This document shows positions 1 through 3,453 of a stretch of DNA of 64,000 nt, piece by piece. Below the pieces are notes generated by a model. That model was not told the DNA's origin and did not search any database. It saw nothing but the letters and a program-made list of their open reading frames with translations. The position numbers and the translations under genes were made by a program. Source of the DNA: Dehalococcoidia bacterium (GTDB taxonomy: Bacteria > Chloroflexota > Dehalococcoidia > UBA2979). The stretch is from contig CAXXDN010000002.1 of the NCBI GenBank assembly GCA_963667465.2, forward strand, positions 992,001-1,056,000, given 5' to 3'. Numbering within the stretch: the stretch's first letter is position 1; the number at the start of each line of letters is the position of its first letter.

Positions 1-393
1 CAGCTCCATGACGTCGGCCTGCGCGAAGCCCAGGCGCTCGAAGAACTCGGGGCGGTAGGTCAGCGCGAAGACGCGCTCGAGGCCGAGCCGTCCGGCCTCG
101 TCGATGCAGGCCTGCACCAGCAGCTGGCCGTAGCCCTGTCCCTGGCGCTCCTCGGAGACGGCGAGCGACTTCACCTCGGCAATGTCGGCCCAGACGATGT
201 GCAGCGCGCCGCAGGCCACGACCTCCTCGCCCTCGCGGACGACGAAGAAGTCACGCAGGTTCTCGTAGGTCTCGCCCTTGGTGCGCGGCAGCATGTCGCC
301 GCGGGCGGCCCAGAAGTTGACGAGCGCGTGGATCCCGTCCACGTCATGGATCGTCGCGCGCTCGACCGTCGTGGGGAGAGCCGGGGCCGTCAT
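1..393 (-). CDS. GNAT N-acetyltransferase, short ArgA-like (amino-acid N-acetyltransferase); 3' end outside window
   Basis: Manual translation from ATG 393: MTAPALPTTVERATIHDVDGIHALVNFWAARGDMLPRTKGETYENLRDFFVV...GALHIVWADIAEVKSLAV...QGQGYG, typical of short ArgA GNATs; not in the ORF track because it is truncated. Confidence 0.85.
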   Translation of the reverse strand, partial: MTAPALPTTVERATIHDVDGIHALVNFWAARGDMLPRTKGETYENLRDFFVVREGEEVVACGALHIVWADIAEVKSLAVSEERQGQGYGQLLVQACIDEAGRLGLERVFALTYRPEFFERLGFAQADVMEL

Positions 394-463
394 GCTTCTA
401 GGATAGTCCCGCGCGACGCAATCGGGCGACGGGGGCCACGAGGGCGGCAAGTTGCGCGTTCAT

Positions 464-478
464 CGTCAGTCTCGCTCC
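464..478. repeat. 15-bp direct repeat, left copy (CGTCAGTCTCGCTCC)
   Basis: Identical to 1511-1525; flanking bases differ on both sides. Confidence 0.95.
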
Positions 479-490
479 GAATGGGTGCCG

Positions 491-742
491 CTACGTTCGG
501 TACGCATCGCGTCGATGGCGTATCCGGAGGACAACGACCTGTCGGGTCTCATCATCGACTCGGTACAGGACGCGGTACGAGCCGACCCGAAGTCGCCATG
601 TAGTTTCAGATAATTTCCTGACACCCCGAGGTCGCGGATCGGATGCAAGTCTACTGGCTCGTTCCCTGATCCGCGCAACCTGCCCAGCAGGGATGGATCG
701 CAGTTCTCGCAATGCCGGCCGTGAGATAAGGAGTTCGTAGAC
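491..742 (-). CDS. RelE/StbE (RelE/ParE superfamily) toxin; apparent non-canonical GTC start
   Basis: C-terminal part of ORF 491..1042: YELLISRPALRELRSIP...DPRPRGVRKL...WRLRVGSYRVLYRVDDETRQVVVLRIRHRRDAY; GGAGG at 753-749, 6 nt before GTC 742. Confidence 0.85.
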   Translation of the reverse strand, partial: VYELLISRPALRELRSIPAGQVARIRERASRLASDPRPRGVRKLSETTWRLRVGSYRVLYRVDDETRQVVVLRIRHRRDAYRT

Positions 743-780
743 GGGAAGCCTCCACGGCCGTGCAACACCGAAACTGGTTG

Positions 781-1032
781 CTATGGCACCTCGGCTTCGT
801 CCAGGTCCTCCCAGCGGATTGCGCCGTGCCTCGCGATGTCGTCCTCCGCTTCTCTGGCAGCGGCAAGATCGTCGAGATCCTCCGTGAACTCTGGGACCTG
901 GAGAGTGACGGCCAAGCTCCCACTTCCGACCGTTCGCGCGACAATCCGCGTCCCATTCCCGGGGATCTGAATCGGCGCCCCACCGAAGTGCTGCACCCTG
1001 ATCTGCACTTGTCGGATCGTCAACCCGCTCAT
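781..1032 (-). CDS. Putative type II antitoxin
   Basis: 83 aa, directly upstream of RelE; acidic C-terminus EDLDDLAAAREAEDD...IRWEDL resembles RelE-neutralising tails; ATGA overlap with upstream gene. Confidence 0.65.
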   Translation of the reverse strand: MSGLTIRQVQIRVQHFGGAPIQIPGNGTRIVARTVGSGSLAVTLQVPEFTEDLDDLAAAREAEDDIARHGAIRWEDLDEAEVP

Positions 1033-1442
1033 TCGCCCTCATCCCCCTGCACCAATACTACATCGGCGGGCACTCGCGCCTTTGGTTCGCCATTGACCAG
1101 CACATCGAACGCATGCGGCCCGGACCGTTCGAATGTCAGGCCGACGATCGTCTGCGGCATCACGAGTTCCACCGGCTTCCCCGAGTCCTTCGGTTCCGGA
1201 ACCTCGATCTCGGCCTCAAGCGTTAGCAGTCGCTGCCCGTCCGGGTCCGAAAGGAAGATCTGTAGGCGCTTCGTCTGCCCTGCCTCCACAGCATCGGCCA
1301 CGAACTTGAGCACCAGCGTGAGCTGTGGATGAGTCGCGGGGAGCTCCCGTGCTGTAATCCGATTGAACACTCCGAGAACGTTGAGCTTGCCCTCCTCGGA
1401 GATGTTCGCCGCATCCGCGATCAGGGCCAGCGGGACGTCCAT
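1029..1442 (-). CDS. Conserved hypothetical beta-rich protein (DUF6941-like)
   Basis: 137 aa; ALIADAA...GKLNVLGVFNRI start and F..SGPH.F.V.VNGE end; GGAGG RBS upstream. Confidence 0.7.
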   Translation of the reverse strand: MDVPLALIADAANISEEGKLNVLGVFNRITARELPATHPQLTLVLKFVADAVEAGQTKRLQIFLSDPDGQRLLTLEAEIEVPEPKDSGKPVELVMPQTIVGLTFERSGPHAFDVLVNGEPKARVPADVVLVQGDEGE

Positions 1443-1510
1443 CCGTACCCTCCGTGCTGTCCGCCTTTGGAGTGTTCAGTCCCATCCCGCCCAGCGTCAA
1501 TAGCGGCTGG

Positions 1511-1525
1511 CGTCAGTCTCGCTCC
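1511..1525. repeat. 15-bp direct repeat, right copy; contains last codons and stop of nadK
   Basis: Minus strand reads G GAG CGA GAC TGA CG; identical to 464-478. Confidence 0.95.
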
Positions 1526-2409
1526 AGCTCGCCGAGCTGGTGGTCCAGACGCAGCCAGCCGAGGCGCTGTGCGAGGTTGGCGTAGAACTGGTTCTCGCCG
1601 CCGAGGCGCACGAACCGCGCACGCCGCGGCGAGCGCGTGATGCGCACCATGCTCCCCGATCCAACCTCGATCTCGTGATGGCCGTCGACGGTCATCACCG
1701 CCTCGTGGCCGCGTGCGACCTCCAGCGTGACCTCGGCGCCGTCACGCAGCACGAGCGCGTTGCCGTAGGAGAGGTGCGGCGCCACCGCCGCGACGATCAG
1801 CTCGCTCGAGGTCGGGTAGAGGATCGGCCCGTGGATCGCGAGCGCGTACCCCGTCGAGCCGGTCGCCGTCGCGACGATCACGGCGTCGGTGCGGTACTCG
1901 GCAAGCACAACGCCGTCGACATGGACGCCGACCGAGACCGTTCGTCCGAGGCGGTGGCGCCCGATCACCACGTCGTTGAGCGCGTGCAATGGCTCGCCGT
2001 CGCCAAGCGCGGCCTGCGCCATCGTGCGTTCCTCGATGCGGCCTCCGCCGCCGAGGATCAGCCGCAGCGCCGACTCCGCCTCGCCCTCGGTCGACTCGGC
2101 GAGGAAGCCGAGGCGGCCCATGCGCACCCCGAAGATCGGGACGCCGAGGGCCGACGCGATGCCCGAGGCCTGGAGCACGGTGCCGTCGCCGCCGACGCAG
2201 ACCAGCAGGTCGGAGCCCGGCAGCTGCGCCTCGACAGGCCCTTCGCCACCGGCCGGACCGTCGCGCTCCAGCGGAGCGCACCAGCTGTCGAGGCCGGTCT
2301 CGACGATCTGCGCGTGCAGGCGCTCGGCGAGCGCCCGGGCGCCGTGCACGTCGGGGTGATAGCAGACCCCGCAGCGCGTGACCCCACCGAGCGCGTCCCC
2401 GGTGCTCAC
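1513..2409 (-). CDS. nadK: NAD(+) kinase
   Basis: GGDGT, GRLGFLA, ALND and TATGSTGY motifs. Confidence 0.95.
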   Translation of the reverse strand: MSTGDALGGVTRCGVCYHPDVHGARALAERLHAQIVETGLDSWCAPLERDGPAGGEGPVEAQLPGSDLLVCVGGDGTVLQASGIASALGVPIFGVRMGRLGFLAESTEGEAESALRLILGGGGRIEERTMAQAALGDGEPLHALNDVVIGRHRLGRTVSVGVHVDGVVLAEYRTDAVIVATATGSTGYALAIHGPILYPTSSELIVAAVAPHLSYGNALVLRDGAEVTLEVARGHEAVMTVDGHHEIEVGSGSMVRITRSPRRARFVRLGGENQFYANLAQRLGWLRLDHQLGELERD

Positions 2410-3185
2410 GAGGCGCCTCGCGACGTCGCGGCCGCGGGCAGGCGCAGCCAGAGGAAGAACTCACGGTTGCCCGCCGGACCGGCCAGCGGCGAGCGGTAGA
2501 CGCCGCGTACGCGCACCCCGCGATCGAGGGCCCACGCCGCGACCTTGCCGACCACCTCGGCATGCACCAGCGGGTCGCGCACCACGCCCCCGCGCTGCAC
2601 CTGCTCGCGCCGCGCCTCGAACTGTGGCTTGACCAGCGCAAGCACATCGCCGCCCGGTCGCAAGGAGCGGAGCACCGCGGGCAGCACGGCGGTCAGTGAG
2701 ATGAACGAGACGTCGACGACGGCCAGGTCGGCGGGCGGGTCGAGCGGCTCGAGGTTGCGCGCGTTCGTGCGCTCGCGGACCTCGACGCGTGGATCGTCGC
2801 GAAGCTGCTGCGCGAGTTGCCCGTACCCGCTGTCGACGGCGACGACCTCGCGCGCGCCGCGTTGCAACAGGCAGTCGCTGAAGCCTCCGGTCGAGGCGCC
2901 GATGTCGAGGCAGCGCAGCCCGCGCACCGCGAGTCCAGTGCGGTCGACCGCGGAGGCGAGCTTGTCGCCGCCGCGGCTGACGTAGCGCGGCCGCTCACGC
3001 AGCTCGAGCGCAGCACCCGGGGCGACGGCCTCCGCCGGCCGGGTCGCCACCGTGCCCTCGACGCGCACCTCGCGCGCCAGCACGAGCGCGCGCGCGCGCT
3101 CCGCGTCGGGCGCCAGCCCGCGCTCGACGAGCAGCTCGTCGAGGCGCAGTCGCGCGCGCGATCGGCGTCTGGCGGCGGTTGTCAT
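2406..3185 (-). CDS. tlyA: TlyA-family rRNA 2'-O-methyltransferase
   Basis: S4-like RLDELLVERGL, YVSRGGDKL, DIGASTGGF, DVSFISL, LVKPQFE, GNREF; start placed at ATG 3185. Confidence 0.95.
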   Translation of the reverse strand: MTTAARRRSRARLRLDELLVERGLAPDAERARALVLAREVRVEGTVATRPAEAVAPGAALELRERPRYVSRGGDKLASAVDRTGLAVRGLRCLDIGASTGGFSDCLLQRGAREVVAVDSGYGQLAQQLRDDPRVEVRERTNARNLEPLDPPADLAVVDVSFISLTAVLPAVLRSLRPGGDVLALVKPQFEARREQVQRGGVVRDPLVHAEVVGKVAAWALDRGVRVRGVYRSPLAGPAGNREFFLWLRLPAAATSRGAS

Positions 3186-3453
3186 AGAGATCGAGGATAC
3201 CCCGCAGCAGCCGCGCACGCTGCCAGGGACGGGAACCGCGGGCTCCCTGCGAGCGTATGGTCAGGTGCGGCTCCATGAGGGCGGTCCCTGTCGTAACCGC
3301 CTCTGGGGAGCTACATGCGACCTCGGCGCTTCCGCGCCGGCCTCCTCGCCACCTCCGCGCTGCTCCAGCTTGTCGCAGGGCTCGCGCACGCGCAGGCGAG
3401 CGCCTCGGACGACTCGGACGAGGCGTGCCGGGCAACCCTGCAGTAGCGAGGCG

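Follow-up and report, generated by a model that had tools for sequence, protein, structure and literature searches.

A toxin-antitoxin-like cassette bounded by a 15-bp duplication of the nadK 3′ end and its precise gain or loss among related Dehalococcoidia

Introduction

Among the integrase-less elements bounded by att sites, the cis-mobilizable elements (CIMEs; ICEberg 2.0) of streptococci are one point of comparison for the locus described here. They derive from, and are mobilised by, known ICEs using the same att site. The present cassette resembles CIMEs in its direct repeats of the attL/attR type, by which the 3′ end of a conserved gene is duplicated, in the lack of recombination or transfer genes of its own, and in the empty site found in relatives. 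It differs from them in that no parent element was detected at nadK in 99 genomes, in its size of just 1 kb, and in its host, which is a Chloroflexota symbiont.

A precedent from the same bacterial class are the ssrA islands of Dehalococcoides, which are bordered by a short (20 bp) direct repeat derived from the 3′ end of an essential gene present in single copy and use a large serine recombinase as integrase (McMurdie et al. 2011, PMC3146451). That study describes 16 islands with an integration module, aligns 28 direct repeats and includes some repeat-bounded islands without an integration module of their own (PMC3146451). The likeness to the present locus lies in the class and in the short repeat of an essential gene's 3′ end, whereas the target here is the protein-coding nadK instead of ssrA, tandem arrays are absent, the cassette is 10-50 times smaller and no conserved motif accompanies the repeat. 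No link to a DsiB-type enzyme was found here.

Integron gene cassettes provide a further parallel, as they are small, promoter-poor, devoid of a recombinase gene and moved by an enzyme encoded elsewhere, which is what may apply to the present cassette as well. Yet, an attC-like hairpin, an array and an attI/intI context are all missing here, and the cassette carries three genes. Insertion with duplication of the target may also proceed along other lines: a restriction-modification unit was reportedly found by Nobusato et al. in 2000 to have inserted with a long target duplication. In the later survey by Furuta, Abe and Kobayashi (2010, PMC2853133), such insertions share with the present case an addiction-type unit without mobility gene, duplicated target DNA extending across a stop codon, and clean empty sites in relatives. 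In contrast, the duplication here measures 15-22 bp compared with their criterion of >30 bp, the cargo is toxin-antitoxin-like rather than restriction-modification, and the cassette recurs at one site in non-sister species instead of at different sites.

The repeat and its host genes

The window, i.e. the whole 64-kb stretch of DNA that was analysed, belongs to a Dehalococcoidia bacterium (genome G000) found in sponge metagenomes. The perfect 15-bp duplication of the nadK 3′ end that had been claimed in a preliminary description is indeed present: CGTCAGTCTCGCTCC occurs as an exact 15-mer at 464-478 and 1511-1525, with a copy-to-copy spacing of 1047 and an identity that ends after 15 bp. The right copy consists of 2 bases past the nadK stop, the stop codon itself, the last three codons (E R D) and one further base, which places the insertion target at the nadK 3′ end. 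These two sites are the sole matches in the 64-kb window at ≤2 mismatches. A search of the whole genome (2,966,484 bp, i.e. 2.97 Mb), as had been suggested, likewise gave just 2 matches at ≤1 mismatch, both bracketing the cassette, and 0 on the reverse strand. Between the copies lies a 1,047-bp same-strand operon encoding a DUF6941 protein, an orphan antitoxin-like protein and a RelE/ParE toxin (Table 1).

Table 1. Features at the nadK-GNAT junction; positions refer to the window.
Feature	Position	Strand	Details
GNAT N-acetyltransferase, 5′ part (argA-like short form)	1..393	-	ATG 393-391; gene runs off the window
21-codon leader ORF	398..463	-	ATG 463-461; stop 400-398
Left 15-bp repeat copy (attL-like)	464..478	.	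duplicated nadK stop region; exact in G000, G009 and G012
Spacer, 12 nt, from repeat to toxin stop codon	479..490	.	unconserved among the three cassettes
RelE/ParE-superfamily toxin gene	491..745	-	stop 493-491; PF05016 1.3e-12; conserved frame starts at ~745-737
83-codon orphan gene in antitoxin position	781..1032	-	start overlaps the DUF6941 stop (ATGA)
DUF6941 gene, first of the operon	1029..1442	-	PF22091 1.1e-28
Operon upstream region, 68 nt	1443..1510	-	GGAGGG ahead of ATG; TTGACG 1500-1495
Right 15-bp repeat copy (attR-like)	1511..1525	.	nadK stop codon and last codons
nadK (NAD kinase), intact	1513..2409	-	PF20143, PF01513; protein 98% identical to that of G001

The cassette stands out by its composition, as had been noted for its three genes: its G+C of 0.58-0.655 is below the 0.69-0.79 of the flanks (200-nt windows), and the same holds for GC3 (0.69 vs 0.92). 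A 15-bp repeat on its own is not beyond chance at this G+C. In the genome, 1661 exact direct repeats of ≥15 bp are spaced 200-2000 bp apart; 24 such repeats per Mb, or ~1.5 per 64 kb, come out of a Markov simulation. The repeat gains its significance because it coincides to the base with the boundary between insertion and empty site in relatives (see below). The idea that such repeats are a general trait of toxin-antitoxin loci in this genome was discarded, given that at neither of its two other ParE loci (C2:838989 and C2:1332970) is the gene pair closely flanked by repeats.

On the other side of the cassette, a short leader ORF precedes the GNAT gene. Its ATG lies 2 nt after the native position of the nadK stop, its stop 4 nt ahead of the GNAT ATG, and its length and frame are alike in 11/11 close species with occupied and empty sites. 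Judged from this conservation, the leader ORF is host DNA outside the cassette. The left repeat copy re-creates the native GGAG...TGAcgATG context ahead of it. The GNAT gene (PF00583, 2.9e-15) adjoins nadK in nearly all genomes of the order. Designated argA earlier, it is a GNAT gene whose score of 149.1 bits for NCBIfam PRK07757 falls just short of the cut-off of 154, with only 131 residues available from a gene cut by the window edge.

The cargo genes

The toxin is recognisable, scoring 48.6 bits against PF05016 (cut-off 23), and the solved structures nearest to it are those of Rv2866 (1.5e-10), an archaeal RelE and RelE. Its reading frame is open and conserved, yet it contains no in-frame ATG, GTG or TTG after the antitoxin stop in G000 and G009; a GTG at 755-753 in G000 is one base out of the toxin frame, and an in-frame GTG is present in the G012 toxin.

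The orphan gene directly upstream encodes a small protein with an acidic tail, for which no family was found in Pfam (E up to 10), NCBIfam or PADLOC, and a PDB profile search was empty, too. Five homologues exist among 5.8 billion proteins, and one real cluster among 1.84 billion representatives. The AlphaFold2 (AF2) model, with a pLDDT of 50, is too poor for structure searching. In the Atlas, the best score (0.78) was obtained for a ribbon-helix-helix antitoxin cluster, which is a lead only, and the C-terminal 41 residues are held in common with P0016 (E 1.7e-5), itself without Pfam family. From its position, the orphan gene can be regarded as a putative antitoxin gene. Of the toxin-antitoxin cassette named in the preliminary description, only the toxin is a recognisable part; the antitoxin is an orphan named by position alone, and the third gene encodes a DUF6941 protein.

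For the latter, the AF2 model (pLDDT 92.5) predicts an all-beta sandwich. The structural matches are weak and confined to generic Ig-like sandwiches (UNC119, PDE6D; TM 0.34-0.57) that give no functional clue. Neither this toxin nor this antitoxin-like gene was found within 1.5 kb at the 30 best DUF6941 loci of the class. Three-gene ParE modules are known in form of PaaR-PaaA-ParE from E. coli O157. The present operon is comparable to this module in combining a RelE/ParE toxin with a small acidic antitoxin-like protein and a third gene; this gene, however, encodes the beta-sandwich DUF6941 protein instead of a transcription regulator.

All three genes appear to be under purifying constraint, with dN/dS of 0.08-0.10 for the toxin, 0.11-0.16 for the orphan and 0.10-0.14 for the DUF6941 gene; the overall range of 0.08-0.16 suggests that the cargo is functional. 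The upstream region of 68 nt is conserved in G009, and G012 has lost part of it. This region contains the TTGACG box that had been pointed out previously, which is at best a weak promoter: a promoter scan of positions 1-2600 returned 0 promoter-like sites.

Occupied and empty sites in relatives

The nadK-GNAT junction was compared across 10 other close species and, in a wider set, across 99 genomes of the order. As the preliminary description had proposed to check, 8/10 of the close species have an empty site with intact nadK, one 15-mer (0-3 mismatches) and a continuous native left flank. The other 2/10 (G009 and G012) carry the cassette at the identical position with both copies exact. The outcome that would have spoken against an insertion, with all relatives having the genes and none the repeat, was hence not observed. 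Cassette remnants were seen at none of the 8 empty sites. In an alignment of the 64-kb window to G001, the cassette is one of just 2 large indels; at the break, the overlap amounts to 14-15 bp. The repeat boundary matches the indel to the base in 10 relatives, and the repeat recurs in 2 other species. These comparisons show that the cassette was inserted into the ancestral nadK-GNAT junction.

The carriers G000, G009 and G012 are non-sisters both on an rpoB tree (18 genomes, 3966 columns), which supports the pairs (G000,G001) at 0.997, (G012,G017) at 0.999 and (G009,G010) at 0.854, and on a tree of the flanks (19 genomes, 1909 columns), with 0.999 for (G000,G001) and 0.98 for (G012,G017). Two of them, G000 and G012, thus have well-supported sisters with empty sites. 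A parsimony count on the rpoB tree requires at least three precise gains or about seven clean losses. Within one subclade of a Dehalococcoidia genus, the distribution therefore implies that the cassette was precisely gained or lost at the repeat at least three times. Import together with its flanks by homologous recombination was considered and excluded. The 200-nt flanks on each side are nearest to those of the empty sister species (98.0/97.5% for G012-G017 and 95.5/96.0% for G000-G001) rather than to those of the other carriers, and therefore lineage-native up to the repeat.

All three cassettes agree in their three genes and in their ends. The one in G012 is decaying: it carries an IS1-type insertion, is frameshifted and lacks 18 bp upstream. 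Beyond these carriers, the cassette was not encountered: the orphan antitoxin-like gene occurs in 3/99 genomes of the order, always at nadK, and a conserved 22-mer gave 0 matches in metagenome contigs and in viral contigs. In genome contigs, it matched G009, G012 and one Acidimicrobiales sequence (L075), which was dismissed as a chance match, as no homologue of any of the six proteins is found there. A profile search with the antitoxin alignment retrieved G009 only, its results being swamped by a low-complexity pattern.

Conservation of the core and age of the cassette

In the carriers, 6/6 core copies are exact, compared with 2/8 at the empty sites (G010 and G017). G017 is the well-supported sister of the carrier G012; G010 groups with the carrier G009 on the rpoB tree only. 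The left copy is invariant at 15/15 columns, as opposed to 33/81 of the other non-coding columns of the cassette and 4/12 columns of the spacer, whose length is 12, 12 and 10 nt in the three cassettes. At the empty sites, the core bases vary freely at synonymous positions and 6/8 differ; CGC is shared by G004, G014 and G011, while the G012/G017 pair has CGA. Constraint on the left copy may, however, have a different cause, since this copy provides GGAG and the native context ahead of the conserved leader ORF. The length of identity between the copies varies among the carriers, with 15 bp in G000, 16 bp in G009 and 22 bp in G012.

Third-position divergence is 0.35-0.36 between cassettes vs 0.18-0.25 between flanks, and dS 0.47-0.85 vs 0.25-0.41, although the dS rates are not comparable because GC3 differs (0.70 vs 0.92). 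A distance ratio of 0.98 (0.83-1.15) stands against one of 0.81 (0.69-0.93), with overlapping intervals. The cassettes themselves are at compositional equilibrium, with GC3 of 0.69-0.72 and 48 AT-to-GC vs 51 GC-to-AT changes. As the divergence of the cassette is at least that of the flanks, the data allow for an old residence with repeated loss.

Assembly and metagenome contigs

Contigs from the likely source runs cover positions 274-1985 with 0 differences, and further contigs, from a run of a different study, extend across both junctions. The repeat is therefore not an assembly join, an outcome that the preliminary description had named as fatal to its reading. In run X3, one contig joins position 463 to 1511 and other contigs cross each junction. 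This empty contig represents a precise deletion that skips 1047 bp with 15 ambiguous bases, just as had been predicted for recombination between the repeats, with removal of 1,047 bp and an intact nadK. Its left flank differs from the window at 8/186 letters, which is why the coexistence of both alleles in X3 was dropped as evidence for excision; the empty allele probably stems from another strain or species. Neither a circle junction nor a within-clone empty site was seen among the contigs examined, which, in contrast to raw reads, drop rare variants.

Search for a recombinase and for mobility signatures

The cassette had been described as integrase-free, and this proved correct: none of its three genes (DUF6941, orphan, RelE/ParE toxin) encodes a recombinase, and the nearest recombinase match is ~120 kb away. 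Large serine and tyrosine recombinases, which could act in trans, are present in every genome examined. G000 has two serine recombinases, 525 and 533 residues long; its large serine recombinases are encoded at C2:1713698 and C2:1798455, its non-Xer tyrosine recombinases at C2:1792205 and C2:1899266. When the presence of two of four non-Xer candidates was followed across 5 genomes, carriers and their empty sisters were alike, and near-matches to the core (≤3 mismatches) by recombinase genes look random. Terminal inverted repeats are absent from the cassette ends, reading of the sequence revealed no dyad symmetry in the core, and the sequences beside the core are unconserved between the cassettes, i.e. 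there are no conserved arms. At the hypothetical circle junction, folding is no stronger than in shuffled sequences (z 0.56 and -0.64), and no attC-type hairpin was found. Cas1 gave 0 matches in the genome, which is 93.6% complete. Both origins suggested in the preliminary description thus failed to gain direct backing. For a mobilisation in trans, neither a circle junction nor conserved arms or dyad symmetry nor a link to any recombinase could be found; for a collapsed island, no larger element was present at nadK in any of the order's 99 genomes. Wider nadK-GNAT gaps in other genera contain unrelated housekeeping-type genes without bounding repeats.

Discussion

We tentatively favour, at slightly less than even credence, an att-type, non-autonomous addiction cassette that is moved by a recombinase supplied in trans. 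The cassette sits exactly at the junction of the nadK stop and the GNAT leader ORF, bounded by the 15-bp core copies. These would act as attL/attR-type recombination sites, and a site-specific recombinase encoded elsewhere would join them, thereby excising or integrating the cassette without damage to nadK or the leader. After insertion, the toxin-antitoxin-type pair could favour retention. The att-type reading is supported by the empty sites, which are the exact product predicted for recombination between the copies, by the same site and core in G009 and G012, the scattered carriers, their native flanks and the conservation of the core. Sound assembly, the occurrence of both alleles in nature, the apparently functional cargo and the Dehalococcoides precedent within the class also speak for it. 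Points against it are the lack of a recombinase in the cassette, of dyad symmetry, of terminal inverted repeats and of a circle junction, as well as the restriction of the cassette to one site and one group of taxa. In addition, a length of identity of 15, 16 and 22 bp is also a hallmark of recombinase-free 'variable target duplication'. A bolder version of the att-type reading, which we consider rather unlikely, is a minimal free-riding element whose sole mobility determinant is the 15-bp core. It would have integrated independently at least three times, only in lineages with the exact core in nadK, using a recombinase of the host or of an island in trans and restoring both nadK and the translationally coupled leader.

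A doubtful but serious competitor is a one-off insertion without recombinase, either with target duplication or via a Campbell-type crossover at a chance 15-bp microhomology, in an ancestor of the subclade; the cassette would then have been inherited vertically and lost cleanly time and again through slippage or short-homology recombination between the copies. This scenario readily accommodates the absence of a mobility gene, inverted repeats and a symmetric site, the inconstant identity length (15, 16, 22 bp) and the confinement of the cassette to this one site. A divergence at least as high as that of the host flanks, together with compositional equilibrium, fits the long residence it entails, and the left copy could be under selection for translation of the leader ORF. 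Furuta et al. report that their repeats often span a start or stop codon and leave the target gene intact, although their criterion of >30 bp was set to exclude att-type repeats (PMC2853133). Difficulties arise from the ~7 independent losses on the rpoB tree, which would all have to be exact, with remnants at 0/8 empty sites. Moreover, survivors should be enriched for mutated repeats that no longer delete, yet 6/6 copies are exact. The left copy is fully invariant (15/15 vs 33/81 neighbouring non-coding columns), while the same bases vary freely in empty sites (6/8 differ), and the distribution of CGC in G004, G014 and G011 vs CGA in G012/G017 is simpler under gain.

The remaining explanations are less probable. 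An integrase-bearing element may have entered the nadK 3′ end and been deleted to its addiction module before the subclade arose, leaving a remnant that is now immobile. When islands decay, toxin-antitoxin modules are commonly what survives longest, a duplication of a gene's 3′ end in the form of 15-bp att-like repeats is typical of integrase-mediated integration, and the G012 cassette shows decay (IS1-type insertion, frameshift, 18-bp upstream deletion). Such a collapse nonetheless appears improbable: no larger element exists at nadK in the genomes compared, where larger gaps hold unrelated genes, and since the three cassettes have the same genes and ends, any collapse would predate them all; the many exact losses and perfectly kept repeats are a problem here, too. 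Target-site duplications of casposons are 14-15 bp long, and the repeat could be conceived as the result of staggered cuts by a site-specific transposase or casposase acting in trans. Casposons generate their duplications via staggered cleavage and insert into protein-coding genes such as ef-2 (PMC6563490). With no terminal inverted repeats, no Cas1 in the 93.6%-complete genome and an inconstant duplication length (15, 16, 22 bp), such a transposition is very improbable. Finally, a chance repeat or an assembly join has a negligible share: ~1.5 15-bp direct repeats at ~1 kb spacing are expected per 64 kb, but the boundary coincides in 10 relatives, the repeat recurs in 2 other species and independent contigs cross both junctions.

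The spread of chromosomal toxin-antitoxin modules is usually put down to hitch-hiking on plasmids, phages or islands; here, nothing but the module was inserted. The insert is delimited with base precision, and sister species differ in having the site empty or occupied. In uncultured Chloroflexota from sponge metagenomes, for which no genetics is available, the nadK cassette hence lends itself as a compact model for two routes of gene movement that are still poorly understood, i.e. cassettes moved by a recombinase in trans and recombinase-free insertion with target duplication. The design of the insertion preserves the target gene as well as the expression signals of the downstream gene. If the cassette is indeed a free-riding element, it would be among the smallest att-bounded elements known and would represent a counterpart of the Dehalococcoides ssrA islands that targets a protein gene.

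Insertion at the 3' end of nadK

Two exact copies of the 15-mer CGTCAGTCTCGCTCC are present in the window, bracketing three genes as the preliminary description had it, and the 2.97-Mb two-contig genome holds no third site, even allowing one mismatch. The right copy includes the nadK stop codon and the last three nadK codons, and the identity of the direct repeat stops at 15 bp on both sides. The minus strand carries every gene of the region. The lower GC attributed to the cassette is evident, with a G+C content of 0.58–0.655 inside versus 0.69–0.79 in the surroundings and a GC3 of 0.69 versus 0.92. By size alone, a 15-bp repeat is unremarkable in this genome, which contains 1661 exact direct repeats of at least 15 bp at 200–2000 bp spacing; a first-order Markov sequence yields 24 per Mb. 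A perfect 8+1+8 palindrome (CCAGCTCGCCGAGCTGG) within the nadK 3' end abuts the right copy; it is imperfect in five related species (G004, G011, G012, G014 and G017) and thus shows no tie to cassette occupancy.

Features of the nadK region (window positions)
Feature	Position	Strand	Remark
GNAT gene (argA-like)	1–393	minus	
Leader ORF	398–463	minus	21 codons; length and frame shared by all 11 close species
Left repeat copy	464–478		
RelE/ParE toxin	ends at 491	minus	
Toxin start region	737–783	minus	GGAGG 6 nt ahead of a GTC codon
Antitoxin-like orphan	781–1032	minus	83 codons
DUF6941	1029–1442	minus	
Inverted repeat	1361–1373 with 1469–1481		13 nt, 92% complementary
Right repeat copy	1511–1525		
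nadK	1513–2409	minus	
Palindrome	1524–1540		
TlyA-type methyltransferase	2406–3218	minus	
Short ORF	3315–3446	plus	43 codons

nadK was found in 41 genomes, that of the window included, and six local proteins were mapped onto the loci. Within the close subclade (nadK identity of 90% or more; 10 species in addition to the window's), eight species lack the cassette and have the GNAT gene about 75 bp after nadK. Their junctions run from the left flank through a single 15-mer (0–3 mismatches) into nadK, which is exactly the product predicted from joining both window copies and the empty site that had been expected in relatives. The other two, G009 and G012, carry the three genes at the identical position with an exact 15-mer on each side; the repeats are spaced 1048 bp apart in G009, and their identity extends over 16 bp there and 22 bp in G012. 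In the eight more distant species of the genus, nadK and GNAT lie 107–118 bp apart (by coordinate subtraction). The nearest species, G001, is collinear with the window over 64 kb at 94.3% identity with only two large indels, one being the cassette, with a 14–15 bp overlap. These comparisons confirm the cassette as a real insertion with exact boundaries. The second indel is a 1.9-kb deletion elsewhere, without repeats of at least 8 bp at its edges. The short plus-strand ORF consists of the signal peptide and final residues of a 673-residue secreted protein, which is intact in G001 and has lost about 1.9 kb in frame in the window's genome.

The possibility that the repeat is an assembly join was ruled out by contigs crossing both junctions. 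In two runs that contain 0.99 of the words and may be the source samples, Logan contigs cover 274–1985 with 0 differences, and a run from a separate study has contigs across the left (1–824) and right (1173–1851) junctions without any difference. Sponge-metagenome run X3 includes a contig (258 nt, depth 7.4) from which precisely 464–1510 is missing, with 15 ambiguous bases, and further contigs cross each junction at depths of 5.3 and 5.8. We read these alleles as probably coexisting lineages rather than excision in progress, because 8 of 186 left-flank letters of the empty contig do not match the window.

Distribution and age of the cassettes

Phylogenies were built from rpoB (18 of 19 genus genomes, 3966 columns; G016 was omitted as its gene is in pieces) and from the TlyA, nadK and GNAT genes (19 genomes, 1909 columns). 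The window's genome groups with the empty G001 (support 0.997 and 0.999, respectively) and G012 with the empty G017 (0.999 and 0.98), while G009 falls elsewhere in the group of the window's genome, where only the rpoB tree puts it beside the empty G010 (0.854). The scatter of the three carriers is thus maximal, and parsimony on the rpoB tree requires three or more gains or about seven losses, every one exact. In the 200 nt flanking the repeat on each side, carriers are closest to their empty sisters (98.0% and 97.5% for G012–G017; 95.5% and 96.0% for the window's genome and G001) and not to fellow carriers (85.5–95%), which rules out arrival of the cassette together with its flanks via homologous recombination.

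All three cassette genes are under purifying selection (dN/dS 0.08–0.16). Third-position differences amount to 0.35–0.36 between cassettes versus 0.18–0.25 in the flanks, and changes are compositionally balanced (48 AT-to-GC versus 51 GC-to-AT); therefore, the cassettes are old relative to one another, without drift toward host GC3. Such divergence fits either prolonged residence of the cassettes or a persistent pool of divergent ones. The strong difference in GC3 makes rates non-comparable, and a distance-ratio test gives overlapping intervals. Divergence and composition do not decide between gain and loss.

Conservation of the repeat and the leader ORF

The 15-mer is exact in all six copies of the three carriers and in two of eight empty sites, those of G017, the sister of carrier G012, and G010, placed next to carrier G009 by the rpoB tree alone. 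The remaining six differ at synonymous or non-coding core positions. In the three-way alignment, the left copy, which is non-coding DNA, is invariant at 15/15 positions, as compared with 33/81 other non-coding cassette columns, and the adjoining 12-nt spacer is scrambled (4/12 columns invariant; lengths of 12, 12 and 10 nt). Hence, the repeat is either constrained or, in each carrier, young.

A possible constraint independent of recombination is the context of the leader ORF, which starts 2 nt past the native nadK stop (TGAcgATG) and stops 4 nt short of the GNAT ATG. The left copy re-forms the native GGAG...TGAcgATG context ahead of it. This constraint cannot explain the full invariance of the left copy, because the same bases vary in empty sites. 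Translational coupling or regulation of the argA-like gene is a possible role of the leader ORF. Two to three arginines occur in its conserved tail, PVARLRRAGLS; in more distant members of the genus, an 11–12 codon ORF overlapping the GNAT start is present instead.

Cargo genes and decay

The toxin matches PF05016, and the solved structures closest to it are M. tuberculosis Rv2866, an archaeal RelE and RelE; it is therefore called RelE-like rather than a gyrase-poisoning ParE. Neither the window's genome nor G009 has an in-frame ATG, GTG or TTG for it after the antitoxin stop. G012, with one base fewer, has an in-frame GTG; in the window's genome this GTG is shifted out of frame by one base. 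The gene may use an unusual start, contain a frameshift or encode an inactivated toxin. The frame is probably translated somehow, since the window's genome and G012 differ within its first 15 codons by 9 synonymous and 0 non-synonymous changes (own count). The middle gene is a true orphan, whose putative antitoxin role rests on position, size, an acidic C-terminal helix and selection. Of 99 genomes of the order, 3 have it, in each case at the nadK site.

DUF6941 is modeled as a confident beta sandwich without informative structural neighbors. The family occurs in 167 of 301 sampled Dehalococcoidia genomes (including one unpublished genome, G330) and in none of 14 control genomes. It is otherwise without link to the cassette toxin or antitoxin-like gene, neither of which accompanies any of its best 30 loci. 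The same genome has a second, solitary copy (C1:45149–45520, locus L036) that shares 34% identity with the one in the cassette and lies downstream of a dihydrolipoyl dehydrogenase gene. The 13-nt inverted repeat pairs the operon 5' leader with DUF6941 codons about 24–28, enclosing RBS and start; it is partially conserved in G009 and might serve in translational control or as an operator.

The G012 cassette is decayed. It is split where the antitoxin-like gene ends, ahead of the toxin, by a 2.4-kb block (locus L033, about 870–3314) with an IS1-type DDE transposase of 316 residues and an ORF of 158 residues that belongs to no family; DUF6941 has a 1-base deletion early in the gene, and 18 bp are missing upstream.

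Possible modes of insertion

The cassette is integrase-free, as had been claimed: neither it nor the window contains a recombinase gene. Four PF00589 and two PF00239 matches exist in the genome, the nearest about 120 kb off, and homologues of one of its serine and one of its tyrosine recombinases occur in carriers and empty sisters alike. Movement by a recombinase acting in trans is the explanation we tentatively favor, although it falls short of probable. In favor of site-specific recombination are the short core, preserved without change, and the recurrence of the cassette at a single site in species that are not sisters, whereas a classical att site is disfavored by the absence of arms, symmetry, parent element and second site. 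No dyad symmetry was seen in the 15-bp core (by inspection), no terminal inverted repeats bound the cassette, no hairpin forms at the hypothetical junction, and sequences adjoining the core are not conserved between cassettes. The same absences, together with the variable identity length of the repeat, suit a single recombinase-free insertion followed by losses, which is possible but rather doubtful. From the preliminary reading as a trans-mobilised unit or collapsed island, the discrete and exact insertion at nadK stands, whereas no larger element was found at nadK among 99 genomes of the order; an immobile island remnant is improbable. A conserved cassette 22-mer has no exact match in metagenome or viral collections.

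In other genera (L107–L114), the nadK–GNAT gaps are enlarged to 349–3359 bp (by subtraction) and hold varied unrelated genes without bounding repeats. By reading ORFs, these include RidA-like, luciferase-type monooxygenase and 807-residue ATPase genes, an isoprenylcysteine-methyltransferase-like membrane protein and 57–58-residue glycine-zipper membrane proteins.

Two known kinds fit: att-bounded elements without their own integrase, and insertions with long target duplication. Among the former, the Dehalococcoides ssrA islands are nearest by host; their description reports an integration module in sixteen and 28 aligned repeats (PMC3146451). For the latter, the published account describes restriction-modification units with no mobility gene and an unknown mechanism, whose repeats frequently include a stop or start codon, the criterion for long target duplication being >30 bp (PMC2853133). 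Placed between these two, the cassette is a clean further case of an already known kind, with exact borders.
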